Of a DNA stretch of 64,000 bases, positions 17,385-39,431 are shown one piece after another (position 1 is the first letter of the stretch; every line of letters starts with the position of its first letter). The DNA comes from Candidatus Woesebacteria bacterium GW2011_GWB1_39_10 (lineage in GTDB: Bacteria; Patescibacteriota; Microgenomatia; UBA8517): the NCBI GenBank assembly GCA_000993205.1, contig LBVU01000001.1:8155-72154 (forward strand), written 5' to 3'. Position numbers and translations under genes: made by a program. Below the pieces are notes generated by a model. The model saw only the letters and a list, made by a program, of their open reading frames with translations. It did not search any database and had not been told where the DNA came from.

Positions 17385-18506
17385 ATGGTGAAAGTGGGCA
17401 TAAATGGTTTTGGTCGAATAGGTAGACTCGCTTTTAGAATCGGAGTTCTAAAGCATTCCGATGAAATTGAGTTTGGGGCAATTAACACTCCGGGGTCTAT
17501 GAATACGGCAAGTTGGGCACATCTTACGAATTTTGATACGATGTACAGAGAATTTCAGTACAAAGTACAAAGTACAGAGTACACCCCACTTCGCCAAGGC
17601 TCCGAGGGGCAAGGAGATCCGTTGATAGGTTATCTAATGGTGTCAGAAAAAAACCTAAAGGTGCCCGTTTTAGCACAGAAAGATCCCTCCTTGATTCCAT
17701 GGAGCAAATACGGAGTTGATGTGGTAATTGAAGCCACTGGGCACTTTATTGATGAAGAAGGTGCTAAAAAGCATGCAGTGGGAGGAGCTAAGCGAGTTGT
17801 GATTTCGGCTCCGGCCAAAGGGGGTAACGTCGGAACTTATGTTTTAGGAGTAAACGAAATGGACGGAAAGGATCCGGAGGGGATGGTAATAAGTAACGCT
17901 AGCTGTACAACAAATTGTGTTGCTCCGGTTGCCGCGGTTATGCAGGCAAAATTTGGAATTGAAAAGGCGATGATGACAACGATTCATAGTTATACGGACG
18001 ATCAAGTTTTGCAGGATAGCAGCCATAAAGATTTGAGAAGGGCGCGTGCGGCTGGGCAAAATATTATTCCAACAACAACAGGGGCTATAGTTGCAACTAC
18101 AGAAACGATACCGGAGCTCAAAGGACTTTTTGATGGTATGAGTTTAAGGGTCCCGACGACCACGGGGTCAATTACAGACTTTACATTTATTTTGAAAAGA
18201 AATGTAACTAAAGAAGAAGTAAATCAGGCATTTAAGGACGCCATAAATAACCCCATATACAAGGGTATATTGGCAGTTTCTGAGGGATTTTTGGTATCAA
18301 GCGATATCATTGGCAGAAGCGAGTCTGCAATAGTTGACTTGCCATTAACACAGGTGGTTGCGGGAAATATGGTTAAGGTTTTTGCATGGTACGACAACGA
18401 GTGGGGATACGCCAACCGCTTAGTAGAACAGGTGATACGGGTAGGAAGAACCCTGGAAGGAAACTCTGTGCCAACAGATCCGATTACACTTTCTTTTTCA
18501 AAATAA
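17385..18506 (+). CDS. gap: glyceraldehyde-3-phosphate dehydrogenase with an in-frame insertion of about 15 aa in the N-terminal domain
   Basis: INGFGRIGR and SNASCTTNC motifs. The extra segment QYKVQSTEYTPLRQGSEGQGD is encoded by repeat DNA. Confidence 0.85.
   Translation: MVKVGINGFGRIGRLAFRIGVLKHSDEIEFGAINTPGSMNTASWAHLTNFDTMYREFQYKVQSTEYTPLRQGSEGQGDPLIGYLMVSEKNLKVPVLAQKDPSLIPWSKYGVDVVIEATGHFIDEEGAKKHAVGGAKRVVISAPAKGGNVGTYVLGVNEMDGKDPEGMVISNASCTTNCVAPVAAVMQAKFGIEKAMMTTIHSYTDDQVLQDSSHKDLRRARAAGQNIIPTTTGAIVATTETIPELKGLFDGMSLRVPTTTGSITDFTFILKRNVTKEEVNQAFKDAINNPIYKGILAVSEGFLVSSDIIGRSESAIVDLPLTQVVAGNMVKVFAWYDNEWGYANRLVEQVIRVGRTLEGNSVPTDPITLSFSK
17557..17584 (+). repeat. tandem heptamer array (AGTACAR)x4 inside gap
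   Basis: agtacaa agtacaa agtacag agtacac, read directly from the sequence. Confidence 0.8.
17584..17610 (+). repeat. GC-rich 25-nt element, copy 1 (CCCACTTCGCCAAGGCTCCGAGGGG), inside gap
   Basis: Near-identical copies at 58004-58028 and 62047-62072. Confidence 0.8.
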
Positions 18507-18532
18507 AACATATCGGATAAATCAGAATTACC

Positions 18533-19198
18533 ATGATTAATATTATCCCTGCAATTCTTACAAATAACGTGACTGAACTTGAAGAAAAAGTTAAAAGGAT
18601 TAACGATGTTTCGTACATTGAGGGGACAACTGTTAGGACAATTCAAATCGACATAATCGACGGTGTGTTTGCAGACAACCGTACCGTTGATCCCGCAAAC
18701 CTAGTCGGACTGGATACAGATTTGGGGCTCGATTTTCATTTGATGGTAAAAGAACCGATTAATTGGATAGAAAAATGCGCCAACGCAGGTGCGGACCGTA
18801 TTATCGGTCAGATCGAAATGATGAAGAATCAGGTTGAATTTGTGGGGAAAGTACAGGAAACAGGATTATATGTTGGTTTGGCACTTGATCTCGAAACTCC
18901 GGTCACTGAGCTTGATTCCCTTATTTTAAATAATGTTGATGTCGTTCTTCTCATGGCTGTAAAAGCCGGTTGGGGAGGGCAAAGATTTGACAAGAGAGTA
19001 TTTGATAAAATTAAAGAATTGGATGAAATTAGATCCAGAGACAAGACACCATTTAAAATATGTGTAGATGGGGGGGAAACAACTGACGTTATTGATGACA
19101 CTCACTATGCGGGGGCAGATGAGGTTGTGATTGGGAAAAGATTGTTTGACGGAGATTTGGCAGCCAATTTTAAAAAATTTATAGAAGCAGCCCACTAA
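18533..19198 (+). CDS. rpe: ribulose-phosphate 3-epimerase
   Basis: IDIIDGVF and HLMV motifs. Confidence 0.8.
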   Translation: MINIIPAILTNNVTELEEKVKRINDVSYIEGTTVRTIQIDIIDGVFADNRTVDPANLVGLDTDLGLDFHLMVKEPINWIEKCANAGADRIIGQIEMMKNQVEFVGKVQETGLYVGLALDLETPVTELDSLILNNVDVVLLMAVKAGWGGQRFDKRVFDKIKELDEIRSRDKTPFKICVDGGETTDVIDDTHYAGADEVVIGKRLFDGDLAANFKKFIEAAH

Positions 19199-19199
19199 C

Positions 19200-19829
19200 A
19201 TGCCACAAGACTTTTTAGACAAAAAAATCAGACAAATTTCTTATTTTGGTTTTGCCGATGCAAAACCTGGAGACCCGCTTTTTGAGGAGGCTTTTGAATG
19301 CGCGAAATTTTTAACGAGTAAGGGTTATGTGGCAATAAATGGGGGAGGACCCGGAACAATGAGGGCTGTTTCGGAGGGGGCAAAAGCCGTTAACGGGACT
19401 GCGGTAGGGGTCACTTTTTATCCGAAAGATGTCGCCAATTATGAGGGTAGAGACAAAAATAACCCCTTTGATATTGAAATAAAAACGAAAAACTATTTGG
19501 AGCGGACTTTAAAATTATTAGAAATGGGAGATGCTTATGTTATTTTTAGAGGCGGAACGGGGACGATTTCAGAATTTGGAATGGCTTGGGGTTTGGCGCG
19601 TCTTTACTTTGGACACCATAAACCCCTTATTCTTTACGGCGAATTTTGGAATAACATAATTAAAGCCTTTGGTGAAAATATGAGAATAAGATCTGAAGAG
19701 CTTGAAGTTTTTAGAGTGGTTTCGACTCCCGAGGAAGCATATGCCGCGATTCAGATTTTTGAAGGAGCATTAAAAAGGAAAGAAGGGGCAAATAATGAAG
19801 AAAGCCCATTCCAAATTAAAGCCAGATAA
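19200..19829 (+). CDS. LOG-family protein (Rossmann-fold nucleotide-binding / cytokinin riboside 5'-monophosphate phosphoribohydrolase family)
   Basis: GGGPGTM and RGGTGT motifs. Confidence 0.7.
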   Translation: MPQDFLDKKIRQISYFGFADAKPGDPLFEEAFECAKFLTSKGYVAINGGGPGTMRAVSEGAKAVNGTAVGVTFYPKDVANYEGRDKNNPFDIEIKTKNYLERTLKLLEMGDAYVIFRGGTGTISEFGMAWGLARLYFGHHKPLILYGEFWNNIIKAFGENMRIRSEELEVFRVVSTPEEAYAAIQIFEGALKRKEGANNEESPFQIKAR

Positions 19830-19831
19830 AT

Positions 19832-20710
19832 ATGCAAAAATTCTCTGTTCACGAACTTGAAGAAAAGGCCAATATAATACGCGAAGATATAATTAAAATG
19901 CTTGTTGAAGCGGGGAGTGGTCATTCGGCAGGTCCCCTTGGAATGGCTGATGTTTTTGCGGCGCTCTACTTTCATATATTAAATCACGATTCACACAATC
20001 CCGCATGGGAAGAGCGCGACAGATTGATGCTTTCTAATGGTCATATTTGTCCGGTCCGTTATGCCGCCATGGCTGAAGCAGGATATTTTCCGGTTAGTGA
20101 GCTTTTAACTTTGAGAAAATTAGGGTCCAGACTTCAAGGTCATCCCGAAAGATTAAAACTTCCCGGAGTTGAAACGACATCGGGTCCTTTGGGGAGTGGG
20201 CTGGCTCAGGCTGCAGGATATGCTTATGCGGCCAAAATGGACGGCCGTAAATTTAGAGTTTACTGCGTGACAAGCGATGGAGAACACCAGGAGGGGAACC
20301 ATTGGGAAGCGGTTATGTTTGCAGCAAAATATAATCTTTCTAATTTAACCGCAATAGTCGACAGAAATAATATTCAGATTGATGGTTATACAGAAGACAT
20401 TATGCCACTTGAACCAATGGTCGAGAAATATAAAGCTTATAACTGGAGTGTTATTGAAATTGACGGGCACAATATGCAGGAAATTATCGATGCCACGGGC
20501 AAGGCAAAGGCAATATTTGAAAATCCGACAGTTATTATTGCTCACACCATTCCCGGAAAAGGAGTCGACTTTATGGAAGGGGATTATAAATGGCATGGAA
20601 ACCCTCCGGGAACAAATATTCCCGGTGAGCCGTCGAAAGACGAACAGGCAAAAATAGCTTTGCGGGAATTAAGAACATTGGGAGGAAAGATAAGATCTGA
20701 ACATCAGTAA
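19832..20710 (+). CDS. tktA: transketolase, N-terminal subunit
   Basis: GSGHSAGPLGMADVFAALYFH thiamine-diphosphate-binding region. Split-gene organisation. Confidence 0.8.
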   Translation: MQKFSVHELEEKANIIREDIIKMLVEAGSGHSAGPLGMADVFAALYFHILNHDSHNPAWEERDRLMLSNGHICPVRYAAMAEAGYFPVSELLTLRKLGSRLQGHPERLKLPGVETTSGPLGSGLAQAAGYAYAAKMDGRKFRVYCVTSDGEHQEGNHWEAVMFAAKYNLSNLTAIVDRNNIQIDGYTEDIMPLEPMVEKYKAYNWSVIEIDGHNMQEIIDATGKAKAIFENPTVIIAHTIPGKGVDFMEGDYKWHGNPPGTNIPGEPSKDEQAKIALRELRTLGGKIRSEHQ

Positions 20711-20800
20711 TTGACCTAATTATTCTAATTGCTCTAATTTTTAAATTGGGACTTATTTAGGACAATTAGATTAATTAGAACTTAGAAATTGTAGAGAGAT
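20701..20800. repeat. AT-rich CTAATT / AATTGGGA / AATTAGA intergenic repeat, copy 1 (between the tkt halves)
   Basis: Shares AATTGGGAyTTATTTAG...AATTAGA...TAATTAGAA with 60768-60865. Confidence 0.6.
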
Positions 20801-21791
20801 GTTGAATATGAAACTTAAACTAAATAATAAGCTGTTTGACGAAGATGTAGAACAATCACCAACCAGAAATGGTTACGGAGAAGGACTTGTCATCGCCGGG
20901 GAGAAAGATCCAAATGTTGTTGTTTTATGCGCAGATTTGACTGAATCCACGAGGTCTAATTTTTTCAAAGAAAAATTTCCGGGAAGATTTGTTGAAATGG
21001 GAGTGGCCGAGCAGGGGATGGCGACTGTTGCCGCCGGAATGGCAAATTACGGAAAAATTCCCTTTATCTCTTCTTACGCGGCCTTCTCGCCGGGACGTAA
21101 TTGGGAACAAATTAGAACAACAATTGCGTTAAACGACGTTCCCGTAAAAATTGCCGGGGCGCATGCTGGTTTAACTGTGGGACCGGATGGGGCAACACAT
21201 CAGATGTTGGAAGACATTGCATTAATGCGGGCAATGCCAAACATGATTGTGATTTACCCTGCGGATTCCATTGAAGCAAAGAAAGCAACTATCGCTGCAG
21301 CCACAAACGGAAAGCCAACATATATTCGTCTTGCCCGTGAGAAAACTCCCATTGTGACAATCGAGGCGACTCCTTTTAAAATCGGCAAAGCAGAAGTTTT
21401 TTGGACGTCTAAAGATCCTCAAGTTGCGATAATAGCCTCAGGCCCACTTCTTTACGAAGCACTTCTTGCTGCAAAAGAACTGACAGGGTCGCACCCTGTC
21501 ATTGTTCTCAATTGTCACACAATAAAACCGATCGATGAACAAACAATAATTCATGCAGCAAAAATATGCGGAGCAGTTGTAACTGTCGAAGAACATCAAA
21601 TCATGGGTGGGCTTGGAGGGGCAGTTGCCGAACTTTTGTCCAAAAATATTCCAACGCCGCAGGAATTTATTGGAATGCCTGATTGTTTTGGAGAATCAGG
21701 ACAACCAGACGAACTATTGGAAAAATATCATATGAAGGCAAAGGATATTATGGAAGCTGTTAAAAAAGCAATCGTCAGAAAAAACTCTTGA
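20799..21791 (+). CDS. tktB: transketolase, C-terminal subunit
   Basis: GVAEQGMATVAAGMA motif and a C-terminal domain. Confidence 0.8.
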   Translation: MLNMKLKLNNKLFDEDVEQSPTRNGYGEGLVIAGEKDPNVVVLCADLTESTRSNFFKEKFPGRFVEMGVAEQGMATVAAGMANYGKIPFISSYAAFSPGRNWEQIRTTIALNDVPVKIAGAHAGLTVGPDGATHQMLEDIALMRAMPNMIVIYPADSIEAKKATIAAATNGKPTYIRLAREKTPIVTIEATPFKIGKAEVFWTSKDPQVAIIASGPLLYEALLAAKELTGSHPVIVLNCHTIKPIDEQTIIHAAKICGAVVTVEEHQIMGGLGGAVAELLSKNIPTPQEFIGMPDCFGESGQPDELLEKYHMKAKDIMEAVKKAIVRKNS

Positions 21792-21816
21792 CAAATGTAT
21801 TGATATAGTATATACT
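21788..21816 (+). promoter_or_regulatory. sigma70 promoter (TTGACA, 17 nt, TATACT) for brnT
   Basis: Consensus hexamers ending 6 nt before the ATG at 21822. Confidence 0.5.
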
Positions 21817-21821
21817 CTTTT

Positions 21822-22133
21822 ATGAATTCAGACATTATCCCTGAACCAATTGAATTTGAATGGGACAAGGGGAACACAGATAAAAATTTCAAAAAACATG
21901 GTATCTCAAATGAAGAGGCTGAAGAAGTCTTTTTAAACGGGCCTTTTATATATAAAGACTTTGAACATTCAAAGATTGAGAAAAGATATAATTGTTTAGG
22001 AGAAACAGACAAAAGAAAGAAGATTTTTATAAGTTTCACCATCAGGGGGGATAAAACAAGATTAATATCGATAAGATTAATGAGCAAGAAAGAAAGACAA
22101 AAATATGCAAAAAATATACAAGAAAATTCCTAG
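21822..22133 (+). CDS. brnT: BrnT-like toxin (type II toxin-antitoxin ribonuclease, DUF497)
   Basis: FEWDKGNTDKNFKKHGISNEEAEEVF is the BrnT signature. Confidence 0.7.
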   Translation: MNSDIIPEPIEFEWDKGNTDKNFKKHGISNEEAEEVFLNGPFIYKDFEHSKIEKRYNCLGETDKRKKIFISFTIRGDKTRLISIRLMSKKERQKYAKNIQENS

Positions 22134-22383
22134 TTTTAAAACCGAAGATGACGAAAGAAAGTTCTGGGATACCCATGATTCTACAGATTATATAGATTGG
22201 TCAAAAGCAAAAAGGACAATATTCCCCAATTTACAATTAACCAGAAAGCCAATTTCATTAAGAATGACGACCAGTTTATTGGCCAAAATCAAGGTTATTG
22301 CAAACAAAAAAGACATGCCGTACCAAACTTTAATTAAACAATATATTTCGGAGGGGATAGATAAGGATTATCAAGTTTTCTGA
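22105..22383 (+). CDS. brnA: BrnA-like antitoxin
   Basis: Overlaps brnT. FWDTHDSTDY motif. RHH-like C-terminus. Confidence 0.65.
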   Translation: MQKIYKKIPSFKTEDDERKFWDTHDSTDYIDWSKAKRTIFPNLQLTRKPISLRMTTSLLAKIKVIANKKDMPYQTLIKQYISEGIDKDYQVF

Positions 22384-22392
22384 TTAAAACTT

Positions 22393-22545
22393 ATGAGCTA
22401 TACTGTGAAGGTAATTGAGTTTAAAGGACAGTTGTGTGTTCCTATCCCAAAACCCCTAGTGAAAAAATTGGGATGGAAAGAAGGTGATGAAATAATCGTT
22501 GACTACGACAAGGTTAAGAATGTGGTTACAATGCGCAAGAAATAA
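22393..22545 (+). CDS. small AbrB/MazE/SpoVT-like protein (50 aa), possible orphan antitoxin
   Basis: Translation MSYTVKVIEFKGQLCVPIPKPLVKKLGWKEGDEIIVDYDK resembles a swapped-hairpin domain. Below the ORF-track size cutoff. Confidence 0.3.
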   Translation: MSYTVKVIEFKGQLCVPIPKPLVKKLGWKEGDEIIVDYDKVKNVVTMRKK

Positions 22546-22587
22546 GCTCCAAATTTTTTCCTGTCTCAAAAAACATTCAAAGAAGAT

Positions 22588-23400
22588 CTAAGGGCAAGGA
22601 GCAAATTCACAATTTGGTCCGGTTCTACCTACATAACTTCCATCAGGGCAAAGTTTTGCTTCTTTTGTGCAAGCAATGGGTTTGGCTGATGGCGAGGCTA
22701 CTGGATTAATGAATTTGAAAGTAGAAAGGATTTGATCAAAAATTTCAAGATCGTTCTGACCCTCGCTGTTAATGTAGATGTTATATATCAAACCATCCTT
22801 GTGTCTAAAAACAAAATTTGTGCCGCTTACAACATTCGAATACTTAGTTTTATAACCACTTATACCATTAATGGTAACTGGTGTTTGTTTGATGATTTTC
22901 GATTCAGTAAGACTGTTGAAGTTTTGCGGTTCTGTCGGAATTTCTCGCACTTCAATACCACCGATTCCAGATTTGGAATCGGCATTTAATCCAAAGAGGG
23001 TGTTGGCACTTGCACTTTGACTAACAACAGCTGACCAATCAGATGGATATTTGAATTGATATTTATAGGTTGGATGTGTATATGTTTTCCAATTTGCAGT
23101 TGGATCCGCCGTCGCTAAAGCTGTGGCGGACGAAGTCGGTGTCGGAGCTACTTGGTAGTTAGCAAGCATTTTCTTTAACTGTTGATTTTGGTAATACAGG
23201 AAGCCAACAGCAGAGAGAGATAAAAGGACAAACACAGCCATGCTTATTACAGTAATATTGTGTGAGCCATTTGTAATTTGTGATTTGTCATTTGGAATTT
23301 GGTCTAGAATTGGTACTTGTGGATCCATATCCAAAGTATACAACATGCCGTTGAACTCCCCAACAGTTAACTGATAGACTGGAATATATATAAATATCAT
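22588..23400 (-). CDS. membrane-anchored hypothetical protein (true start probably the internal Met near 23346)
   Basis: TM helix ISMAVFVLLSLSAVGFLYY. A C-terminal Cys pair. Confidence 0.45.
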   Translation of the reverse strand: MIFIYIPVYQLTVGEFNGMLYTLDMDPQVPILDQIPNDKSQITNGSHNITVISMAVFVLLSLSAVGFLYYQNQQLKKMLANYQVAPTPTSSATALATADPTANWKTYTHPTYKYQFKYPSDWSAVVSQSASANTLFGLNADSKSGIGGIEVREIPTEPQNFNSLTESKIIKQTPVTINGISGYKTKYSNVVSGTNFVFRHKDGLIYNIYINSEGQNDLEIFDQILSTFKFINPVASPSAKPIACTKEAKLCPDGSYVGRTGPNCEFAPCP

Positions 23401-24361
23401 GGAAGAAACTGTTCAAAAACTACTCGTTTCTAGAAAAGGACTACTTGCCGCTGACGAATCGACTAAAACAATTACAAAAAGGTTTGCGGCTTTGGGTCTG
23501 ACTTCGACTCCCGAGCTTAATAAAAAATACAGGGAAATGCTATTTACCACACCCGGTGTGGAAAATTATATAAGTGGTGTTATTTTATTTGACGAATCTG
23601 TTCGCCAAGATCTTCACAAGATCTTGGAGTCAAAGCGAATTATTCCCGGCATCAAAGTTGACGAGGGACTCATGTCATTTAACGATACTCCCGAGCAAGT
23701 AACAGAAGGTTTGGAAACACTGGACGTACGGCTTAAAGAATACGCGCAGATGGGAATGAAATTTGCCAAATGGAGAGGTGTTTTTAAAATCACAGACATG
23801 TATCCATCAAAAGTTTTTTATGACGAAAACTTAGGAAGGATGGCTAAATATGCCAAGATTACCCAAGAAAACGGAATAGTCCCAATAGTTGAACCTGAGG
23901 TTCTTCTCGAAGGAAACCATACAACTACAAGATGCGGTGAAACTATGGACGCGACTTTAAAAATTCTTTTTGAAAAGTTGAATACCGAAGGAGTAGATCT
24001 TAAAAATCTGATAGTCAAAACCAGCATGGCCTTACCTGGTCCGGATAGTGGAGTAAAGGCACTTCCCTTGGAGGTGGCAAACGCGACTCTCAGGGCACTC
24101 AACAGATCTGTTCCGCCCGAAGTCCCGGGAATAGTTTTCCTTTCCGGCGGACAAACCTCGGATGAGGCAACTAACAATCTAAATGAAATAGTGAAACTTA
24201 AAGAAAATTCGCCTTGGGTTTTGACGTTTTCGTTTTCCCGGGCTTTACAAAACGAAGCAATGGAAACATGGGCCGGAAAAGATGAAAACACCGCTAACGC
24301 TCAGCAAGTTTTTATCAAAAGGCTTGAAATGGTTTCAAAAGCCGCGAAAGGAGAACTCTAA
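23399..24361 (+). CDS. fba: fructose-bisphosphate aldolase, class I
   Basis: LLAADESTKT and ILFDES motifs typical of class I (Schiff-base) aldolases. Confidence 0.8.
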   Translation: MEETVQKLLVSRKGLLAADESTKTITKRFAALGLTSTPELNKKYREMLFTTPGVENYISGVILFDESVRQDLHKILESKRIIPGIKVDEGLMSFNDTPEQVTEGLETLDVRLKEYAQMGMKFAKWRGVFKITDMYPSKVFYDENLGRMAKYAKITQENGIVPIVEPEVLLEGNHTTTRCGETMDATLKILFEKLNTEGVDLKNLIVKTSMALPGPDSGVKALPLEVANATLRALNRSVPPEVPGIVFLSGGQTSDEATNNLNEIVKLKENSPWVLTFSFSRALQNEAMETWAGKDENTANAQQVFIKRLEMVSKAAKGEL

Positions 24362-25360
24362 ATGAAACCATCAGATTTACTTTCAATAGGGGACTCTTCG
24401 ATTGACACATTCATGACCCCACTCGAAACCGAAACTCTTTGTACCATAGACAAAAAGCAGTGCCTAATAGCATTCGCCTATGGGGAAAAAATACCCGTTA
24501 AGAATTTAGAATTTGCTGTGGGTGGAAATGCCGGAAATAATGCTGTAGGAGCAAAGAGGTTGGGAATAAATTCTTCAATTGTTTTGACTTTGGGGGATGA
24601 CAGTATTGGAAATTTAATTGTTGAAAAATTGAAAAATGAAGGGGTAGATATGACCTTTGTGATTCAGCAACCCGGAACCACGTCTAACTACTCAACGGTA
24701 ATTAATTATATGGGAGAGCGCACAATTTTTGTTTATCATGCACCCCGAAGTTATGAATTTCCGGTACAGCTCCCGGTGGTACCTTGGGTTTATCTAACCA
24801 GTATGGGGGAAAGTTTCAGACCCTTTTACAACCATTTAACTGAGTGGTTTAAGAAAAACCCGACTGTTAAGGTGGCCTTTAATCCCGGAAGTTGGCAACT
24901 TAGGGAAGGGTACGATGCAATAAAAGAAATAATAAAAATCGCTCATATAATTTATGTGAATAGACAGGAAGCCGAAAAGCTTATCGGTTTTGGAGATTCT
25001 GCCGGACGCGATCGAGATCTACTAATTGCCTTAAATAAGCTTGGCCCCAAGATTTGTATCATAACGGATGGAGGCGCTGGGGCATTTGCCTATGACAGCA
25101 TAAACGGAAAATTTATAAAAGTCGGCATTCTTCCCGTTGACGCATACGAGCGGACGGGTGCGGGGGATGCGTTTGGGAGCGGTTCGCTTTCTGCAATAAT
25201 TCATGGGAAAACATTGGAAGAAGCGCTTCTTTGGGGAACAGTCAACTCCGCGTCAGTTATTGGTTATACGGGTCCGCAAAAAGGTCTTTTGAAACTTGAA
25301 GAGATGGAGGTGTGGCTTGCCAGATGCAAAAGTAGTGGGGTTTCTGTGACTGCAATATAA
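24362..25360 (+). CDS. PfkB-family carbohydrate kinase (ribokinase-like)
   Basis: GAGDAFGSG motif near the C-terminus. Confidence 0.7.
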   Translation: MKPSDLLSIGDSSIDTFMTPLETETLCTIDKKQCLIAFAYGEKIPVKNLEFAVGGNAGNNAVGAKRLGINSSIVLTLGDDSIGNLIVEKLKNEGVDMTFVIQQPGTTSNYSTVINYMGERTIFVYHAPRSYEFPVQLPVVPWVYLTSMGESFRPFYNHLTEWFKKNPTVKVAFNPGSWQLREGYDAIKEIIKIAHIIYVNRQEAEKLIGFGDSAGRDRDLLIALNKLGPKICIITDGGAGAFAYDSINGKFIKVGILPVDAYERTGAGDAFGSGSLSAIIHGKTLEEALLWGTVNSASVIGYTGPQKGLLKLEEMEVWLARCKSSGVSVTAI

Positions 25361-25367
25361 ATATAAT

Positions 25368-26354: not shown

Positions 26355-26359
26355 CCCCA

Positions 26360-26388
26360 TTGACATTATGACAAATTCGTCATAAAAT
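26360..26388 (+). promoter_or_regulatory. sigma70 promoter (TTGACA, 17 nt, TAAAAT) containing the palindrome TATGACAAATTCGTCATA (candidate HigA operator)
   Basis: Ends 1 nt before the ATG at 26390. Inverted repeat TATGAC..GTCATA. Confidence 0.5.
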
Positions 26389-26389
26389 T

Positions 26390-26689
26390 ATGAAAGTTAT
26401 ATATCATCCAGAAGTTGATAAAACAATTCGGGATTTATCGAATAAGGAAAATTCTAGGGTAGTAAAAGTAGTCGATTTTTTTGAGAGCAGTAAGTTTTTG
26501 TTAGATCAAAAATATCTCAAAAAGATAATGAAAGGCCTTTGGGAATTAAGAGCGGGGAGGTACAGATTATTATTTGGCATATCGGGTGGAAATGCGATTG
26601 TAACAAGATTATTTCTGAAGAAAACTCAAAAAACACCAGACAGGGAAATTAAATTGGCGATAAAAAGACTAAACGAATATGAACAATAA
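26390..26689 (+). CDS. higB: HigB/RelE-like toxin (Gp49-like family)
   Basis: 99 aa. Toxin-first order with the overlapping HTH gene. Confidence 0.6.
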   Translation: MKVIYHPEVDKTIRDLSNKENSRVVKVVDFFESSKFLLDQKYLKKIMKGLWELRAGRYRLLFGISGGNAIVTRLFLKKTQKTPDREIKLAIKRLNEYEQ

Positions 26690-27333: not shown

Positions 27334-27334
27334 T

Positions 27335-27775: not shown

Positions 27776-27790
27776 TCTACTGTGATTTTA

Positions 27791-27805: not shown

Positions 27806-27836
27806 AATGTCAATAATAGTTTGTTAGAATAGATTT

Positions 27837-28184: not shown

Positions 28185-28194
28185 TCTTACACAG

Positions 28195-30564: not shown

Positions 30565-30612
30565 TACGGGGTATTGTACCAGCCAAGCCTGAATTTTAAA
30601 AGGAAATTATAC

Positions 30613-32880: not shown

Positions 32881-32883
32881 TTA

Positions 32884-33402
32884 ATGGAAACACTGGAACA
32901 ATTATCAGAAAAAATATGGTGGGGTTACCTTGGGGAGGATCTTCAAAAACTTCTTAAGGAGTCGGAATTTATTTATTCTACAGTAAAAAGCTGGGGCGCG
33001 GATTTACCGGGTGGAAGACGAGAATTTGATGATTACTCATTTGTTGTTTTTCCTGCAGCCAAAGCCTACGAAGGTTTTTTAAAGAAACTTTTCCTGGACT
33101 TAAATTTTATTACAGATATAGATTATTATGGAAAACATTTCAGGATTGGTAAGGCCCTAAATCCGTCTCTTCCGAAGGAATCCCGACGTGACGGAGTTTA
33201 CGACAAGATTGTCAAGTATTGTGGAGGCGCGGAGCTGGCCGAAAAGCTTTGGGAAACCTGGAAAGAGTCACGGAATCTGATTTTTCATTGGTTCCCAAAC
33301 GAAAAGAATGCTATTTCACTTGAGGAATCCGGCAAAAGAATCGAAATGATAATTGGGGCAATCGATAGAGCTTTCAGGGAATGCAGATTAGATACTAAGT
33401 GA
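32884..33402 (+). CDS. hypothetical protein with a possible HEPN-like R-x4-H motif (SRNLIFH)
   Basis: 172 aa. The last codons and stop (LDTK*) are formed by GATACTAAGTGA repeat DNA. Confidence 0.35.
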   Translation: METLEQLSEKIWWGYLGEDLQKLLKESEFIYSTVKSWGADLPGGRREFDDYSFVVFPAAKAYEGFLKKLFLDLNFITDIDYYGKHFRIGKALNPSLPKESRRDGVYDKIVKYCGGAELAEKLWETWKESRNLIFHWFPNEKNAISLEESGKRIEMIIGAIDRAFRECRLDTK

Positions 33403-33470
33403 CTCGATACTAAGATATTGAGTGGGCGTGACTTTTTTCCAGGATCCTAGTATCATAGTATCATAGTATC
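33390..33470. repeat. GATACTA-type tandem repeats plus a (TAGTATCA)x3 octamer array
   Basis: agatactaagtgactcgatactaag ... tagtatcatagtatcatagtatcc. Confidence 0.7.
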
Positions 33471-33482
33471 CTTTTTTACTTT

Positions 33483-34139
33483 ATGACTGTCAAAACATCA
33501 AATATTTCGATATTAAAAAACGTCACGATCTACGCTACGTATCTGATCATAATTTGGGCGTTTTACAGATTTCTTTTCCGCTTCCCCGATGAAATTGAGG
33601 AGTTGGTTATCAAACCGATTGTTTGGCTCATTCCTCTTTTTTACTTTGTTAAAAAAGAAGGGTTTGGAATTTCTTCACTTGGGTTTACTTTTAAGAATCT
33701 TTTTCCTGCAATCTATCTCTCGATAGGGTTAGGCGCGGTATTCGTGATGGAGGGGGTTTTAACCAATTTCGTAAAATACGGAAAATTAAATTTTGGAGCA
33801 AATATTGGAAGCACTCCGCTTATGATGTCGCTTGGACTTTCTTTTATTACAGCTTTTTCTGAAGAGGCTGCTTTTAGGGGATATATTTTTAGCAGGCTCT
33901 CTTTTGCTCTTAAAAATGAATGGTCAGCGAACATTATCCAGACTCTTCTCTGGACGGGGATCCATGTTCCGATAGCGTTTTTTATTTGGGGTTATACTCT
34001 ACCGCAAGGAATCGTGTACTTAAGCTTAACGGCGATATTCGGACTTGGGAGCGCGTTCATTTTCGGTAGGACCAAAAATATTTTTGGAAGTATATTATTG
34101 CATGTTTTGTGGGAATGGCCAATAATTCTTTTTAGGTAG
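33483..34139 (+). CDS. CPBP-family intramembrane metalloprotease (CAAX protease / Abi domain)
   Basis: EEAAFRGYIF and FxxxH/W motifs. Multiple TM helices. Confidence 0.7.
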   Translation: MTVKTSNISILKNVTIYATYLIIIWAFYRFLFRFPDEIEELVIKPIVWLIPLFYFVKKEGFGISSLGFTFKNLFPAIYLSIGLGAVFVMEGVLTNFVKYGKLNFGANIGSTPLMMSLGLSFITAFSEEAAFRGYIFSRLSFALKNEWSANIIQTLLWTGIHVPIAFFIWGYTLPQGIVYLSLTAIFGLGSAFIFGRTKNIFGSILLHVLWEWPIILFR

Positions 34140-34147
34140 CTTCAAAC

Positions 34148-34184
34148 TTGACAAATTATTTCAATGTGATATCATGATATCACT
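34148..34184 (+). promoter_or_regulatory. promoter (-35 TTGACA) plus the 18-bp perfect palindrome GTGATATCATGATATCAC, a candidate VapB operator
   Basis: Palindrome at 34166-34183, directly upstream of the ATG at 34185. Confidence 0.45.
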
Positions 34185-34442
34185 ATGGTAGCTACAATAA
34201 TCAGACTTCCAGAAGAAGAACATGAATTTTATAAAGAGTATGCCTACAAAAATGGTATGAGTCTAAATGATTTTTTTAGGTTTTCTGCCCGAGAAATAGC
34301 GGGTAAAAAAGCAATTAAGAGCAAACATTCCTTTTTTGATCTTGGAACAAAGGTTGTGTTTAAAAGTGGCCCAAAAGACGGATCGATAAATCATGATAAA
34401 TATCTTTACGAATTTGAAGATAAGAAAATGCATTCTAAATGA
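34185..34442 (+). CDS. VapB-like antitoxin
   Basis: 85-aa ORF overlapping the downstream PIN gene by 4 nt. Confidence 0.45.
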   Translation: MVATIIRLPEEEHEFYKEYAYKNGMSLNDFFRFSAREIAGKKAIKSKHSFFDLGTKVVFKSGPKDGSINHDKYLYEFEDKKMHSK

Positions 34443-34840
34443 TTTTTGTAGACACCTCTGCGATAGCTGCCTTAACTTTTACGAAAGATTCGTTTCATTC
34501 ACGCGCAGAATTATGGTTTTCGGATCACCAAAAAGAGAATTTCATTGTTACAAATTTAGTGATAATCGAAATTCTGAATTGGGTAAGATATAGACTTGGC
34601 AAAAATAAAGCCATTGAATTAGGAGAAAAACTCTATTCAGGCAATGGAATTAGTATTGTTAAAGTTTCTCCTGAGGATGAAAAGAATGCTTGGAGGCTCT
34701 TTAAGAAATTAGGCGGAAAGGGTATTTCGATGGTTGATTGCACTTCTTTTGTTGTAATGAAGAGACTAAAAATTAAAAAGGTGTTTGCATTTGACACCGA
34801 TTTTAAAAAAGCAGGGTTTGACCTCCTTCCCGCGACTTGA
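34439..34840 (+). CDS. vapC: VapC-like PIN-domain toxin
   Basis: N-terminal MIFVDTSAI with conserved acidic residues. Confidence 0.7.
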   Translation: MIFVDTSAIAALTFTKDSFHSRAELWFSDHQKENFIVTNLVIIEILNWVRYRLGKNKAIELGEKLYSGNGISIVKVSPEDEKNAWRLFKKLGGKGISMVDCTSFVVMKRLKIKKVFAFDTDFKKAGFDLLPAT

Positions 34841-34877
34841 CTTCGATTGAATACAGTCCTACCATTACAATTACCCG

Positions 34878-35507
34878 ATGTTTAAGAAATATTTGTACGG
34901 AATCCCCCTTTTTGTCCTTGCTTTCGCAATTCTTTCGGTTTCGGTCATGAGATCTACAGCCGTATCTTATGTTTTTGCAACCCCGTTGTCCTCTCCGACA
35001 GCTGTATTAAATAAGGTTACTGAAATAGATTACGAACTTCCATTTCCGGGCAAGGTCTTACCGGATAGTATGTTTTGGGTATTTAAAGTCATGAGGGACA
35101 AATTGTGGTACGGACTGTCATTCTCTCATTTAAAGAAAGCCGAGTTAGCTCTTCTTTTTTCGGACAAACGTCTGGGTGCCGCCAAAATTTTATTTGAAAA
35201 GAAAAAGCCGGATATCGCGCTTTCTACATTGTCTAAAAGCGAGAGATATGTGGAAATCGCAACCAATGAGGAGGATAGGGCGAGAAAAGAGGGGGTAGAC
35301 ACCTCAAAGTTTTTGGAGAAAATGACGGTCGCCGCTCTTAAACATAGGCAGGTTATCGAGGAGGAGATACTGCCGATTTCTCCCGAAGACGCAAAACCGG
35401 AAGTTATCAGACTTGAGAACTACAGTAAAAATGCATACAAGACGTCGAGAGATGCGTTATATTCAAAAGGTAGGTCTGTTCCAATTAATCCGTTTGATAG
35501 GCCATAA
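34878..35507 (+). CDS. secreted/membrane-anchored hypothetical protein (DUF5667-like)
   Basis: Signal-anchor sequence followed by a helical domain. Confidence 0.4.
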   Translation: MFKKYLYGIPLFVLAFAILSVSVMRSTAVSYVFATPLSSPTAVLNKVTEIDYELPFPGKVLPDSMFWVFKVMRDKLWYGLSFSHLKKAELALLFSDKRLGAAKILFEKKKPDIALSTLSKSERYVEIATNEEDRARKEGVDTSKFLEKMTVAALKHRQVIEEEILPISPEDAKPEVIRLENYSKNAYKTSRDALYSKGRSVPINPFDRP

Positions 35508-35742
35508 CCAGCGCTATTGTTTATCTTTTTTGAACCATTCTTTCTAATTTCAAATTTTTGATTTCCGCAAGATTCCCCGCGAGCAAAATAAATTCAAAAA
35601 AACTGGCCTCAATCGACGCCTAAGGTGATACGTTTTGCTATAAATGTTGGCAGTTGATAGTCTAGAGGTAGTGTCTAATAATCACCTTTATCACTAGTTG
35701 TAGAGCGTTTGCTTTACACAAGTGAAAAGATAAAAACTAAAT

Positions 35743-36177
35743 ATGAAATGTCCATTTTGCGGAGCGGCAGATACGAGCGTTCTCGAAAGCAGGACTGTTG
35801 ATGGAAAAGTTAGGCGGAGGCGGGAGTGCAGCAAATGTGAGAAAAGATTTACAACTTTTGAAGAAGTAAAAAAAACCTTCCTCTGGGTGATTAAAAAAGA
35901 TGGACGGCGCGAGCCGTTTGATAAGGAAAAGATCAGAAGGGGAATATTGAGGGCAATACTTAAGCGTCCGGTCTCGATGGATCAGGTAGAGGGGGTTTTG
36001 GAAGATGTCGAACGGGAAATGCTTAAAGCGGAGGAAGCTGAGGTCCAAAGTAGAGCTATAGGAAATGCAATTTTGAAAAGACTTAAGAAACTGGATAAAG
36101 TAGCGTGGTTAAGATTCGCCAGCGTCTATCTTGAATTTGAAGACCTAAGTGATTTTGAAAAAGCCATAGAGAAGTAG
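35743..36177 (+). CDS. nrdR: transcriptional repressor NrdR (zinc ribbon + ATP-cone)
   Basis: MKCPFCG...CSKCEKRFTTFE zinc ribbon. ATP-cone motif KRDG.REPF. Confidence 0.85.
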   Translation: MKCPFCGAADTSVLESRTVDGKVRRRRECSKCEKRFTTFEEVKKTFLWVIKKDGRREPFDKEKIRRGILRAILKRPVSMDQVEGVLEDVEREMLKAEEAEVQSRAIGNAILKRLKKLDKVAWLRFASVYLEFEDLSDFEKAIEK

Positions 36178-36205
36178 GACTTCTCTGGCACTAGGTTCAG
36201 TCGCG

Positions 36206-36223
36206 CACACAACAAGTTGTGTG
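36206..36223. promoter_or_regulatory. candidate NrdR box (CACACAACAAGTTGTGTG palindrome)
   Basis: The inner 16 bp match 13/16 positions of the NrdR-box consensus acaCwAtATaTwGtgt. Confidence 0.4.
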
Positions 36224-36257
36224 GCTTCTGAAATCTATTGTTGAGAAATAGAATAAG

Positions 36258-36278
36258 ATCCTGAAACAAGTTCAGGAT
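36258..36278 (+). repeat. hairpin element, copy 1 (ATCCTGAA-ACAAG-TTCAGGAT); overlaps the AGGA Shine-Dalgarno of nrdJ
   Basis: Second copy at 58734-58754, inside recF. Confidence 0.6.
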
Positions 36279-36286
36279 GACAAAAT

Positions 36287-38746
36287 ATGCCGGAAACAAT
36301 ACAAATACAAAAACCAAAAAAGAAACACACAAATGGGAAAAGCAAAAAACATTTAACGAATGCAGATTTTGTTTTTGAAGCTCCTGCAAATTCTACGTTA
36401 CTTGAAGGGATAAGAAAAGACGTTTTTCTTGACAGATATTCACTTAAGGACGAAACCGGCACACCGCTTGAGCAGTATCCCGAACAAATGTGGAAGAGAG
36501 TAGCTTTGGGGATTTCCCAACAAGAAAAACCGGCGCTAAGGAAAGTTTGGGAAGAAAAATTCTATAACGCGATGAGCGGATTTAAATTTGTCCCGGCGGG
36601 GCGTATTCTGTCCGGCGCCGGGACTCCTTATCAGGTTACTTATTACAACTGTTATGTAATTCCATCACCCAAAGACAGTCGTGGTGGAATTATGGAAAAC
36701 ATTACGATGACAGTAGAAATTCAGGCCAGAGGCGGTGGAGTCGGGGTGAATTTAAGTTCTTTAAGACCCAGGGGATCAAGAGTTAAAAAAGTAAATGGGA
36801 CCTCCTCCGGCCCTGTTAATTGGGCCGCTCTTTATTCAACGGCAAATCATGATGTGATCCAGCAGGGCGGTTCCCGCCGTGGGGCCCTGATGATAATGAT
36901 TAATGATTGGCACCCCGATGTTGAAGAATTTATTACAGTTAAACAGGATCTCACGAAAATTCCCGGCGCGAATCTTTCAGTATGTGTCTCCGACGCATTT
37001 ATGGATGCTGTTAAAACGGATGCCGATTGGAATTTAGTCTTTCCGGATAATGCCTATTATAAGTACGACGATGAGTGGGATGGAGACTTGGACAAATGGA
37101 AGGAGAAAGATTATCCGCTGATAGTTCACAAAACCATAAAAGCCAGAGAACTATGGAATTTGATTGGAGAAGCAGCATGGAAATCGGCCGAGCCGGGGGT
37201 GGTTTTTATTGACAGGTACAATAAATTGAGTAATACCTGGTATTTTGAAAAAATCATTGCCACCAACCCGTGTGGAGAGCAGGGCTTGGGAGCTTGGGGG
37301 GTTTGCAACCTGGGGCATTTGAATCTTCCGTCATTCATTCACGACGGGGCTGTCGACTTTAAACTTCTTGCAGAACACGCCTCAATTGCTACACGATTTT
37401 TAGACAATGTGGTAGATGCCAACTATTATTTTTATGAAGAAAATAAAAAGGCGCAACTGAATATAAGACGCACGGGACTCGGAACTTTGGGACTTGCGGA
37501 TGCATTAATCAAAATGAAACTTAAATACGGAAGCCCAGAATCCTTGGGGGTTATCGAAAAAATATACACAACGATTCGCGACGCGGCTTATACGACTTCA
37601 GCGCTTCTCGCCAAAGAAAAAGGATCTTTTGGAGGGTTCAGTAAAGAAAAATACCTAAAAGGTGTGTTTATCCAAAAACTTCCGGTAAAAATTAAACACA
37701 TGATTTCTAACCACGGAATAAGAAATGCTATAATTTTGACCCAAGCACCGACCGGTACAATCTCTCTTCTTGCGGGAGTTTCTTCCGGTATCGAGCCGGT
37801 TTACGAATTTAGTTATAAAAGAAACGATAGAACGGGGGAGCATATTGTTAATCACCCTCTTTACGACGAATGGTTTAAGAATCATCCGTCGGAAAAGATT
37901 CCGGATTATTTTGTCAGTGCCAGTGCCTTAACCCCAGAGGATCATGTGAAAGTTCAGGCAATGATCCAAAATTTAACTGACTCCTCGATAAGTAAGACCG
38001 TAAATGCTCCCAATTCTCACACGGTGGAAGATGTTAAAAAACTCTACCAGCTTGCATATGAACTTGGGTGTAAAGGTGTTACATATTTTAGAGACGGAAG
38101 TCGAACCGGAGTGTTATCCAAAGTTGACGACAAGCCTCAAGAAACTAAGTCAATCGTTACAGAACGCCCCTTAAGGGTTGACGGAGCAACATATAGAATT
38201 CCAACCCCGCTTGGTGTTGCCTTTATTACAGTAAATCAAGACCCGCTGGGAAATCCTTTTGAGGTATTTATTACCATAGGGAAGGCGGGAAGTGAGGTGG
38301 CTGCCCTTGCCGAGGCATTGGGTCGTATGATTTCTACAACTCTCAGATTTGGAAATCACAAGCCTCCTATCGAGCGGGCGCGTGAGATTATGGAACAACT
38401 TAAAGGAATTGGCGGAGGCAGATCGGTGGGGTTTGGACCGAATAAAATAAGATCGCTTCCCGATGCTGTGGCACGGGCGATATCTCTTCATTTTGGTTTC
38501 GGGGCTGACAAACACGATGCTGTAAACGGGGTTACTTTGCAGGTTGGAATGACTGTTTTGGCAGATGGTGCAGTACCAATGGACACGGCTTTAGTCGATT
38601 CAGCACCCGTTCCTGCCGCGCCCTCACCTTTGTTTGCTCAGGCACCTGTTAAAGCCGGAGACATTTGCCCTTCCTGCGGAAGTAGCGCCCTAGTTTATGA
38701 AGAGGGTTGTGCAAAGTGCCATGTGTGCGGACATTCAGAATGCTGA
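36287..38746 (+). CDS. nrdJ: adenosylcobalamin-dependent ribonucleotide reductase (class II, NrdJ) with a C-terminal zinc ribbon
   Basis: NPCGEQ active-site motif and CNLG. C-terminal CPSCG...CAKCHVCG. Confidence 0.85.
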   Translation: MPETIQIQKPKKKHTNGKSKKHLTNADFVFEAPANSTLLEGIRKDVFLDRYSLKDETGTPLEQYPEQMWKRVALGISQQEKPALRKVWEEKFYNAMSGFKFVPAGRILSGAGTPYQVTYYNCYVIPSPKDSRGGIMENITMTVEIQARGGGVGVNLSSLRPRGSRVKKVNGTSSGPVNWAALYSTANHDVIQQGGSRRGALMIMINDWHPDVEEFITVKQDLTKIPGANLSVCVSDAFMDAVKTDADWNLVFPDNAYYKYDDEWDGDLDKWKEKDYPLIVHKTIKARELWNLIGEAAWKSAEPGVVFIDRYNKLSNTWYFEKIIATNPCGEQGLGAWGVCNLGHLNLPSFIHDGAVDFKLLAEHASIATRFLDNVVDANYYFYEENKKAQLNIRRTGLGTLGLADALIKMKLKYGSPESLGVIEKIYTTIRDAAYTTSALLAKEKGSFGGFSKEKYLKGVFIQKLPVKIKHMISNHGIRNAIILTQAPTGTISLLAGVSSGIEPVYEFSYKRNDRTGEHIVNHPLYDEWFKNHPSEKIPDYFVSASALTPEDHVKVQAMIQNLTDSSISKTVNAPNSHTVEDVKKLYQLAYELGCKGVTYFRDGSRTGVLSKVDDKPQETKSIVTERPLRVDGATYRIPTPLGVAFITVNQDPLGNPFEVFITIGKAGSEVAALAEALGRMISTTLRFGNHKPPIERAREIMEQLKGIGGGRSVGFGPNKIRSLPDAVARAISLHFGFGADKHDAVNGVTLQVGMTVLADGAVPMDTALVDSAPVPAAPSPLFAQAPVKAGDICPSCGSSALVYEEGCAKCHVCGHSEC

Positions 38747-38768
38747 AAGCATTCTGAATATGAACTCA
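38744..38768. terminator. perfect palindrome TTCAGAATGCT-GAA-AGCATTCTGAA overlapping the nrdJ stop codon, followed by an imperfect long inverted repeat (38772-38855)
   Basis: Read directly from the sequence. No clear T-run. Confidence 0.35.
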
Positions 38769-38861
38769 AATCTAATATCTCAAATCTCAAAACTGTTCTG
38801 GATTTTAAATTTTAGATATAGATTTGAATTTTGATATTTGAGTTTTGAGTTATAATACTTC

Positions 38862-39431
38862 ATGTCAATTTACACAAAAACAGGAGATGAAGGAACTACA
38901 AAGGTTTTTGATAAAAAATCCGGTCAACTCGTTGGCATACGTAAAGATTCTTGTACGATCGCAGCGATTGGCGCCATTGACGAACTGAATTCTTTTTTGG
39001 GAATAATAAAAGCAGAGATATTAGGATATAAAGATACTAAGATATTAAGTGAGAAAAAAACTGCAATAAAAATAGAAGAAATACAGGGGAATCTTTTTAC
39101 GATAAATTCAATTCTTGCCGGGGCAAACCTGAGGTTTTCTAAAACAAAAACTAAAAAACTGGAAAAAGAGATTGATAAATGGGAGGGAGAGTTGCCCGTC
39201 CAAAAAAACTTCATTTTTTACGGGGGAACTCCAAGAGCTTCACAGCTCTTTTATGCGCGTGCCATCTGTCGCCGTGCTGAGCGTGCTCTGGTAGTACAGA
39301 GTACAGAGTACAAAGTACCTAGCGAGTTAATGATGTATATAAATCGCCTGTCTGATTATCTGTTTATGATGGCGAGAAGCGAAAACTTCAAAAATAAAGT
39401 TAAAGAAAATTTTTGGAAAAGTTCAAAATGA
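38862..39431 (+). CDS. pduO: ATP:cob(I)alamin adenosyltransferase, PduO-type, with an in-frame repeat insertion
   Basis: YTKTGDEGTT motif. The QSTEYKV segment is encoded by a heptamer array. Confidence 0.75.
   Translation: MSIYTKTGDEGTTKVFDKKSGQLVGIRKDSCTIAAIGAIDELNSFLGIIKAEILGYKDTKILSEKKTAIKIEEIQGNLFTINSILAGANLRFSKTKTKKLEKEIDKWEGELPVQKNFIFYGGTPRASQLFYARAICRRAERALVVQSTEYKVPSELMMYINRLSDYLFMMARSENFKNKVKENFWKSSK
39294..39318 (+). repeat. tandem heptamer array (AGTACAR)x3.5 inside pduO
   Basis: agtacag agtacag agtacaa agtacc. Confidence 0.8.

Follow-up and report, generated by a model that had tools for sequence, protein, structure and literature searches.

Heptamer runs in the gap and pduO genes of a Woesebacterium as members of a class of short tandem arrays

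We analyzed two runs of the heptamer AGTACAR in a 64,000-nucleotide (nt) stretch of DNA from a tiny bacterium of groundwater, Candidatus Woesebacteria bacterium GW2011_GWB1_39_10 (contig LBVU01000001.1, positions 8,155 to 72,154; here called the window). One run lies in gap, which encodes glyceraldehyde-3-phosphate dehydrogenase (GAPDH), and the other in pduO, which encodes a cobalamin adenosyltransferase. Both are best described as fixed, inherited members of a class of 7- and 8-nt tandem arrays, and not as insertions at gap and pduO; we put the probability of this descriptive part at about 0.85. The whole explanation, in which the class extends through coding and non-coding DNA of the candidate phyla radiation (CPR) and arises by an inferred slippage or conversion mechanism, has a probability of about 0.5. 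The runs and their host genes are as follows.

17385–18506, + strand: gap, type I glyceraldehyde-3-phosphate dehydrogenase (open reading frame, ORF; Pfam Gp_dh_N and Gp_dh_C), host of array 1
17557–17584, + strand: AGTACAR array 1 in gap, AGTACAA AGTACAA AGTACAG AGTACAC, encoding Y59-Y66/T67 (YKVQSTEY)
38862–39431, + strand: pduO, PduO-type ATP:cob(I)alamin adenosyltransferase (ORF; Pfam Cob_adeno_trans), host of array 2
39293–39318, + strand: AGTACAR array 2 in pduO, AGTACAG AGTACAG AGTACAA AGTAC (found by Tandem Repeats Finder, TRF), encoding V144-P153 (VVQSTEYKVP)

Two AGTACAR runs in gap and pduO

The pattern AGTACARAGTACAR, with at most one mismatch allowed, has five matches in the window, all within the gap and pduO runs, compared with 0.05 expected from shuffled sequence. 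This expectation and the count of period-7 arrays given below rule out chance as the origin of the runs. An assembly artefact is ruled out as well. Identical GAPDH, adenosyltransferase and exonuclease proteins are present in three GW2011 Woesebacteria metagenome-assembled genomes (the window gap product is 100% identical to Candidatus Woesebacteria GW2011 proteins), identical proteins occur on 11–15 contigs (NCBI, JGI, ENA, Logan), and three near-identical variants retain the run.

The original prediction, made from the sequence of this stretch, placed four AGTACAR units in gap at 17557–17584; the coordinates and the count hold, but the fourth unit ends in C and not in R. The 3.5 units that it gave for pduO (39294–39318) form a real run, which starts one base earlier, at 39293, and comprises 3.7 units. 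It also listed a lone GTACAGA unit at 17543. That sequence is present (17543–17549, + strand), but it consists of the codons ATG TAC AGA of an invariant DTMYR motif, and because all orthologs have ATGTAYMGN at this point the match is a coincidence and not an array unit. The runs are genuine tandem heptamer DNA, as had been proposed, and not a by-product of the peptide: the array DNA uses the less common codons TAC, GTA and GAG, as periodicity requires, and relatives with the same peptide carry the same DNA or a partly decayed form of it.

Three heptamer units make 21 nt, or seven codons, and pass through all three codon phases. Since 7 and 3 have no common factor, moving the frame by one base amounts to moving it by whole units, and a heptamer array yields one and the same cyclic heptapeptide whichever frame of a given strand is read, Q-S-T-E-Y-K-V in the case of AGTACAR. 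Two arrays that share a unit and a strand therefore share a peptide automatically, and the "same frame" follows with it. Both runs do read ..QSTEY.., as the original prediction stressed, but the agreement is uninformative, since only the strand is shared and this has a 1 in 2 chance. The (GAAATCC)n family described below likewise gives E-I-R-N-P-K-S in three genes.

The runs had been taken for in-frame insertions. Alignments with 120 orthologs of each protein show no indel at either site, and we found no length change and no target-site duplication at gap or pduO. In GAPDH, YKVQSTEY aligns without gaps with YEVKSEEL and similar segments of a conserved beta-strand. Most of the gap run falls on the strand that matches GTVEVKD of E. 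coli (alignment with E. coli GapA and 150 CPR sequences), and only its last unit enters a loop of 14–24 residues that is present in Microgenomates and missing in Saccharibacteria and E. coli. In PduO, VVQSTEYKVP aligns without gaps with SFSKEQKVP and similar segments, among the 120 orthologs and in B. subtilis YvqK. Most orthologs of both proteins have quite different residues at the array positions. AlphaFold2 models place GAPDH Q62-E65 in a beta-strand followed by a low-confidence loop (residues 66–79), and PduO array 2 at the end of a helix (124–146) and in the following loop (147–153). The models are modest (mean predicted local distance difference test score, pLDDT, 68 and 61) and were used only for local secondary structure where pLDDT exceeded 70.

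The same DNA is found in diverged relatives (relatives and orthologs are referred to by L and P numbers, respectively). Synteny with the window extends over ~37 kb, at ~80% DNA identity, in the complete genome CP066686.1; this genome has AGTACAG three times plus AGTAC at the pduO site, and its gap has neither the array nor the GC-rich element that adjoins the array in the window. The pduO array is decayed in L171. The more distant L170 has GTG TCT TTT TCT AAA GAA CAA AAA GTT CCA at this site, a spelling from which it follows that the array arose by multi-nucleotide replacement. L173 has a perfect gap array, which agrees with that of the window at 27/27 nt in a gene that is otherwise 71% identical; in L172, L082, L083 and L089 the array is partly decayed.

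According to the original prediction, any change in unit number would shift the frame. We found no sign of such a change: copy-number variants are absent among the 11–15 public contigs, three 99%-identical variants keep the array (all as assembled sequences), and relatives keep the same unit number at the runs. Synonymous sites within the runs are also better conserved than those elsewhere in the genes (values given below). The runs are old, inherited and fixed, and they are not frameshift switches. A recent transfer of the gap segment was considered and rejected; the array plus the GC-rich element shows 86% identity with L172 when counted by hand, and the remainder of the gene shows 72%.

In a tree built from the remainder of the GAPDH protein, sequences with QST are dispersed, and the nearest relatives of the window are without QST. 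A 28-residue GAPDH segment (window 17550–17640, compared with P0001-P0120) occurs in a few haplotypes, QSTEY..IGE, KSEEL..IGN and ..IGY, that are likewise scattered on the tree. Such a distribution suggests that the segment is a mosaic or has been replaced repeatedly.

Where the gap site is spelled otherwise, a fainter pattern resembling a heptamer, in register with the array, is often visible, such as AGTATGA AGTTAAA AGTGAAG. Even the 61 orthologs without QST show a weak trace of it, AGT every 7 nt; the match at lag 7 is 0.36 at this site versus 0.23, and 3.7% of control windows score as high. The spellings are internally homogeneous, with AGTTAAA three to four times (L105, L005), AGTTCAA twice (L086) and AGTACAR three to four times (window, L173, L082). 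Units of AATTTCC (L022, L137) and AAATCTC (L135, L144) occupy the site in other CPR lineages. The lag-7 excess and the homogeneous spellings together suggest concerted change without change of length.

Other arrays and a GC-rich element in the window and its relatives

The AGTACAR runs are two of many. Nine period-7 arrays of at least three units occur in the window, versus 0.2 expected. We counted 23 in 0.69 Mb of Woesebacteria-like loci and 36 in 1.1 Mb of other CPR loci, a density of 3.3 per 100 kb in CPR relatives; shuffles gave 0, periods 8–12 gave 0–2, and four 50-kb pieces of E. coli K-12 (200 kb) contained none. Long ORFs hold 40 of 67 arrays. The two runs had been considered unusual for essential genes, but arrays of 7- or 8-nt units are found in at least five further housekeeping genes of the window. 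We found no description of heptamer repeats in Patescibacteria/CPR in the literature searched, and the habit of placing 7- and 8-nt arrays in ordinary protein genes of these bacteria is apparently undescribed so far. Further arrays in the window are as follows.

23266–23301, − strand: (ATTTGTN)n array inside the ORF 22588–23400 (TRF); equally long and less regular in CP066686.1
38765–38851, no strand assigned: a pair of inverted arrays, (CTCAAAT)n with (ATTTGAG)n, that form a hairpin between nrdJ and pduO (TRF; RNA fold z = −2.9)
39016–39049, + strand: octamer array (AGATATTA/AAGATACT type) in pduO (TRF), encoding GYKDTKILS at the turn between helix 1 and helix 2
40722–40748, + strand: (GATACTA)n array at the end of the ORF 40389–40736 (TRF); conserved in CP066686.1
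50674–50708, + strand: (AAATCCG)4.6 array within the gene for the 5'-3' exonuclease, read as KNPKSEIRNPK and belonging to a 13-residue insert at a hypervariable site
51887–51926, + strand: (AAACTCG/AAATCCG) array within the gene for a GT1/GT4 glycosyltransferase, read as KLEIRNSKSETRN
52963–52996, + strand: (GAAATTC/GAAATCC) array within the gene for Fpg/MutM, read as VEIRNPKYEIRK

Units recur within the 64 kb: AGTACAR is found at two loci and the GAAATCC type at three. The three genes with (GAAATCC)-type arrays, for the exonuclease, the glycosyltransferase and Fpg, are consecutive and unrelated; their arrays lie on the coding strand, ~1.1–1.2 kb apart, and encode EIRNPKS-type peptides. At each of these sites the sequence of the relative L169 is unrelated. 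The octamer array of pduO is a true insertion, since orthologs of 168–170 residues are without it. The octamer family (AGATATTA/AAGATACT) also occurs in intergenic DNA at 43119–43134 and 44043–44076, and a heptamer variant is found at 40722–40748.

The neighbor of pduO is the gene for a B12-dependent ribonucleotide reductase (nrdJ). The spacer between the two genes (38750–38853) is ~104 nt longer than that of CP066686.1, which is 9 nt, and the extra DNA consists of the inverted heptamer arrays.

Insertion in frame is seen at another gene. In the 5'-3' exonuclease, the site between TKAKE and DVVIVTGDRD (window 50670–50715; orthologs P0241-P0360) is an insertion hot spot, where orthologs have between 0 and 44 residues added. 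In the base state the site reads TKAKE-DVVIVTGDRD (298 residues); the window has 13 residues more, and dozens of orthologs have other array-type inserts, for example KIKNLKFKI, KDTKILRYKDT, VQSTEYK and QSTINNQQ. At this hypervariable site the exonuclease of another Woesebacterium, L167, carries AGTACAC AGTACAG AGTACAG AGTACAA as an exact insert of 21 nt (seven residues). That heptamer arrays enter genes in frame, as the original prediction assumed for gap and pduO, thus does happen in these bacteria. The L174 exonuclease has (AAGATACT)4 followed by inverted (AGTATCN)4. An array of GCTTTAT x3 (50271–50292), of the type found in the arms of an L167 cassette described next, lies shortly upstream of the exonuclease gene of the window.

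Relatives contain cassettes with a gene of family PF05635 (23S rRNA intervening sequence protein, bAvd-like). They lie at the following places.

L163, 3954–4366
L167, 3906–4346
L170, 1045–1495
L014, L106, L110 and L116

All seven testable PF05635 genes are flanked by inverted repeats of 17–31 nt, a survey that had no matched random control, and several of these repeats are built of 6–7-nt tandem units. In L170 a PF05635 gene with inverted AGATACT-type arrays occupies the spot of the nrdJ-pduO array hairpin of the window; the window itself has no PF05635 gene by tblastn. Diversity-generating retroelements were considered in view of the bAvd/PF05635-type genes nearby in relatives. We saw no template/variable-repeat pair or reverse transcriptase, and this candidate was not pursued further.

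A second kind of repeat stands next to the gap run. It is a GC-rich element, CCCACTTCGCCAAGGCTNCGNGGG, of which the window has three copies, all on the + strand and inside genes, each in a different reading frame.

17584–17615, + strand: copy 1 (CCCCACTTCGCCAAGGCTCCGAGGGGCAAGGA) in gap, encoding (T)PLRQGSEGQG at the tip of the Microgenomates-specific GAPDH loop (low pLDDT)
58004–58029, + strand: copy 2 in a recF-like gene, second frame, encoding HFAKATRD; also in the relative L169
62047–62076, + strand: copy 3 in an ATP-dependent DNA ligase gene, third frame, encoding PTSPRLRGAG

The gap run does adjoin a GC-rich element, as predicted, and this element measures 32 nt (17584–17615). It starts directly after AGTACA and is substituted for 26 nt of an L173-type loop. 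The further proposal that the gap locus is one composite insertion fails: the array occurs without the element (L173, L082, L083, L089), the element without the array (P0068), and 26 nt have been replaced by 32 nt. The GC element of gap is a separate dispersed element, independent of the array. It is found in the GAPDH of the window, P0039, P0068 and P0080 and is missing from most GAPDH orthologs; other GC-type inserts, NPSTSSGQDSA and PSGQG, occupy the same loop in other orthologs. Related copies occur in L172 and L144.

GC-rich pieces lie in or beside heptamer arrays in two further cases (L144 and L167), and the association of GC elements with heptamer arrays may be real. In the L167 Fpg gene (6116–7003), a 27-nt GC-rich piece, GTCAGCAGCAGGGCTGGCCGTGGATTC, sits within a CAAATTC-type heptamer array with the direct repeat AAATTCCAAAT on both sides, and it looks like an insertion with target duplication. 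The ends of the GC element are complementary over 4–5 bp, and CCCC..GGGG is changed to TCCC..GGGA in the recF copy, one compensatory change. The three copies fold no better than shuffled sequence (z = +0.5, −0.5 and +0.3).

Several other repeats and a compositional shift were recorded in the window. A tRNA gene (44121–44192) lies between an octamer array and a period-9 array (44043–44236), and more period-9 arrays, of the CAAATTGGG and AATTAACCT types, lie at 44585–44809 and 60768–60859. At 36293–36349, at the start of the ribonucleotide reductase gene, TRF finds a 28-nt unit twice (79% match), which encodes a lysine-rich N-terminal tail. G+C is 47–49% in positions 1–6000 and 37–43% over most of the remainder.

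Origin of the arrays and rival explanations

In the explanation that we favor, arrays would be born and homogenized through misalignment in replication or repair, by whole-unit slippage, by quasi-repeat correction or by short-patch conversion among arrays that share a unit. Selection would act as a filter, passing changes that keep the frame, create no stop codons and fall in tolerant surface segments, here presumably the strand edge and loop of GAPDH and the helix end and loop of PduO. An array stays in frame if the net length added or replaced can be divided by 3. Those of gap and pduO occupy, base for base, segments that are spelled otherwise in orthologs, with no length added, and would then persist as neutral or near-neutral coding microsatellites. 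The GC element would later have replaced the adjoining 26 nt of the gap loop.

Several observations weigh against this explanation, in that slippage alone does not account for them. Relative to the ancestor-like spelling, the pduO array is a multi-nucleotide replacement that includes a serine switch from TCT to AGT, and four copies of a 7-mer are short for efficient slippage. At the exonuclease site, genomes that are ~80% identical in DNA hold wholly unrelated inserts. One unit, AGTACAR, is present in three unrelated genes (gap, pduO and the L167 exonuclease), and exact unit identity among 76 arrays links 24 pairs versus 3.4–9.1 expected (p about 0.002), an excess that is partly orthology. Finally, the excess of synonymous-site conservation in the arrays could signal a function at the level of DNA or RNA. 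Codons for the same amino acid are identical at 9/9 positions in the gap array versus 43% elsewhere (window versus L173, p = 6e-4), and the corresponding values for pduO are 9/9 versus 62% (p = 0.017) and 8/8 versus 60% (p = 0.019).

Sharing of units and turnover at the hot spot are drawn on by the main rival, an active copy-and-paste process. A dedicated mechanism would deposit 7- and 8-nt arrays and the GC mini-element at new sites, and copies that are in frame, free of stops and located in loops would be kept; candidates are small hairpin elements with array arms, related to the PF05635 cassettes, or repeat-adding synthesis at DNA breaks. We consider this unlikely, although a good deal of the evidence can be read in its favor. 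The four AGTACAR units of the L167 exonuclease are an exact 21-nt insert, and the exonuclease site has received many unrelated array inserts in orthologs, with one insert replaced by another between the window and its 80%-identical relative. The octamer AAGATACT is shared by pduO of the window, the L174 exonuclease (in an inverted array pair) and intergenic DNA, and exact unit sharing is above chance. GC elements stand in or beside arrays in three cases and are read in three frames. The inverted repeats around all seven testable PF05635 genes, and the L170 cassette at the hairpin spot of the window, also speak for it. On the other side, no enzyme has been identified and the window has no PF05635 gene; the gap and pduO arrays are old and came without target-site duplications or length change; the inverted-repeat survey lacks its matched control; and the looser test of unit similarity (at most one mismatch, any rotation or strand) is not significant, with 222 pairs versus 148 expected and a random maximum of 261.

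In its widest form the copy-and-paste idea would have CPR bacteria, or at least Microgenomates, harbor an active micro-element system. Families of 7–8-nt arrays, often hairpins and tied to PF05635 cassettes, together with ~30-nt GC elements would repeatedly rewrite enzyme surface loops at hot spots. We regard such a system as doubtful. If it existed, the gap and pduO runs would be two old footprints of it, an attribution to which we assign a correspondingly low weight.

The conservation of synonymous sites bears on a different possibility, that (AGTACAR)n is a functional DNA or RNA element, a binding platform for protein or RNA placed in the genes of a compact genome and selected at the nucleotide level. 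Besides synonymous sites that are better conserved within the arrays than elsewhere in the genes, the same unit on the same strand in three genes and the palindromic GTAC core repeated every 7 nt would fit this idea, which we nevertheless judge distinctly improbable. The closest relative (91% identical GAPDH) and many orthologs do without the gap array, other units (AATTTCC, AAATCTC) occupy the same gap site, and arrays have decayed in L083, L089, L171 and L172. The arrays have no Rfam match, and their fold z scores are −0.6 at the gap site and a modest −2.2 at pduO. The window contains GTAC 96 times versus 107 expected, neither an enrichment nor a depletion.

Three specific candidates of this kind were rejected. 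For a known RNA family, Rfam on the window gives two tRNAs only, and the folding of the array and of the GC element is unremarkable. GTAC as a restriction or methylation target was dropped on the same 96 versus 107 count. A resemblance to the LexA box (cyanobacterial RGTAC-N3-DGTWCB) was dropped because the spacing is off by one base.

The view with which this work began, that the runs are recent in-frame insertions at frameshift-prone (phase-variable) sites and that gap holds one array-plus-GC composite, is now very hard to sustain. Its attraction was that units of a length not divisible by 3 are situated within ORFs, that the heptanucleotide arrays of neuO in E. coli K1 behave in this way, and that the gap array and GC element are contiguous. 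Alignment with orthologs shows no indel, however, and the arrays are present in relatives that are only 70–80% identical in DNA. Copy number is constant on 11–15 contigs and in three near-identical variants, array and GC element are separate in other genomes, and the arrays have just 3.7–4 units in housekeeping genes.

We give least credence to convergence at the protein level, in which QSTEY(K)V would be selected for itself in both enzymes with the DNA periodicity as a side effect: the peptide recurs in many GAPDH orthologs and in three enzymes, but it follows from the unit, its codons are periodic rather than the commonest and are conserved at synonymous sites, it sits in different structural settings (on a beta-strand of GAPDH, at a helix end and loop of PduO and in a loop inserted into the exonuclease), and most orthologs have quite different residues there.

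Comparison with known repeat systems

The closest counterparts of the CPR arrays are the short tandemly repeated repetitive (STRR) heptanucleotides of heterocystous cyanobacteria, which Mazel et al. are said to have described in 1990: tandem 7-nt units, CCCCAGT and others, reportedly in a few dispersed families and mainly intergenic. We know of no established function for STRRs, which to our knowledge are lineage-specific. The arrays analyzed here resemble them in that 7-nt units are arranged head to tail and are specific to a lineage, and unit families may recur at many dispersed loci here too. Unlike STRRs, they occur in a CPR host, many are in frame inside housekeeping genes, and the units are AGTACAR, GAAATCC, AAATCTC and AAGATACT. 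They work like STRRs but are outside the described STRR families.

The small dispersed repeats (SDRs) of Nostoc punctiforme, attributed to Elhai et al. in 2008, are reportedly 21–27 nt long and found inside conserved genes and within tandem heptamer repeats. On this description the GC element is similar: it is 26–32 nt long, dispersed, placed in three genes and three frames, in or beside heptamer arrays in three cases, and present or absent at orthologous sites. The Nostoc SDR work (Elhai et al., 2008, Genome Res 18:1484) is cited in PMC3116915. Compared by description only, the GC element differs from SDRs in phylum and apparently in sequence, and it has no significant stem-loop energy.

Rickettsia palindromic elements (RPEs), which Ogata et al. 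are said to have reported in 2000, are palindromes of ~100–150 bp that lie in frame in conserved genes and add a surface peptide while function is kept. The likeness is that of small repeated DNA in frame, and the inverted-array insert of the L174 exonuclease comes closest. The arrays, in contrast to RPEs, are tandem 7-mers, and RPEs reportedly always add length. Here the pduO octamer and the exonuclease inserts lengthen their host ORFs; the gap and pduO AGTACAR arrays add none.

Arrays in neuO are reportedly long and polymorphic and switch a dispensable surface-modification gene. With them the gap and pduO runs share a 7-nt unit within an ORF, three units that make a heptad peptide, and a frame that would shift with unit number. 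The neuO gene, for the capsule O-acetyltransferase of E. coli K1, is a heptanucleotide variable-number tandem-repeat contingency locus (PMC13001214; PMC2651432). Of the usual marks of a contingency locus, the runs show a unit not divisible by 3 in an ORF and show neither repeat-number polymorphism nor a dispensable or surface-related host. Unlike those of neuO they have 3.7–4 units, are invariant in all assemblies and reside in housekeeping genes; other array hosts, Fpg and the 5'-3' exonuclease, are likewise not dispensable or surface genes.

Borg genomes contain pervasive repeats, about half of them in ORFs, where every unit is a multiple of three nucleotides long and virtually unique to its locus, and slippage has been discussed for them (PMC9879509). 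Tandem repeats that create new peptide segments, with slippage discussed as the origin, are common to both systems. They differ in that the units here are 7 or 8 nt long and common to several loci.

If the class is real, it would be a simple and previously unremarked source of novelty in protein loops of reduced CPR genomes. Repeats whose unit is not a multiple of 3 would still be able to enter essential genes, since three units restore the frame, and each family would write the same peptide everywhere. Proteins that serve as markers in the phylogeny and annotation of uncultured lineages (GAPDH, Fpg, Pol I exonuclease) acquire "insertions," odd peptides of low complexity and mosaic segments from the arrays and the GC element. 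The parallel with the cyanobacterial heptamer repeats and small dispersed repeats makes the CPR arrays a second, much smaller genomic system in which to seek the mechanism behind such repeats.

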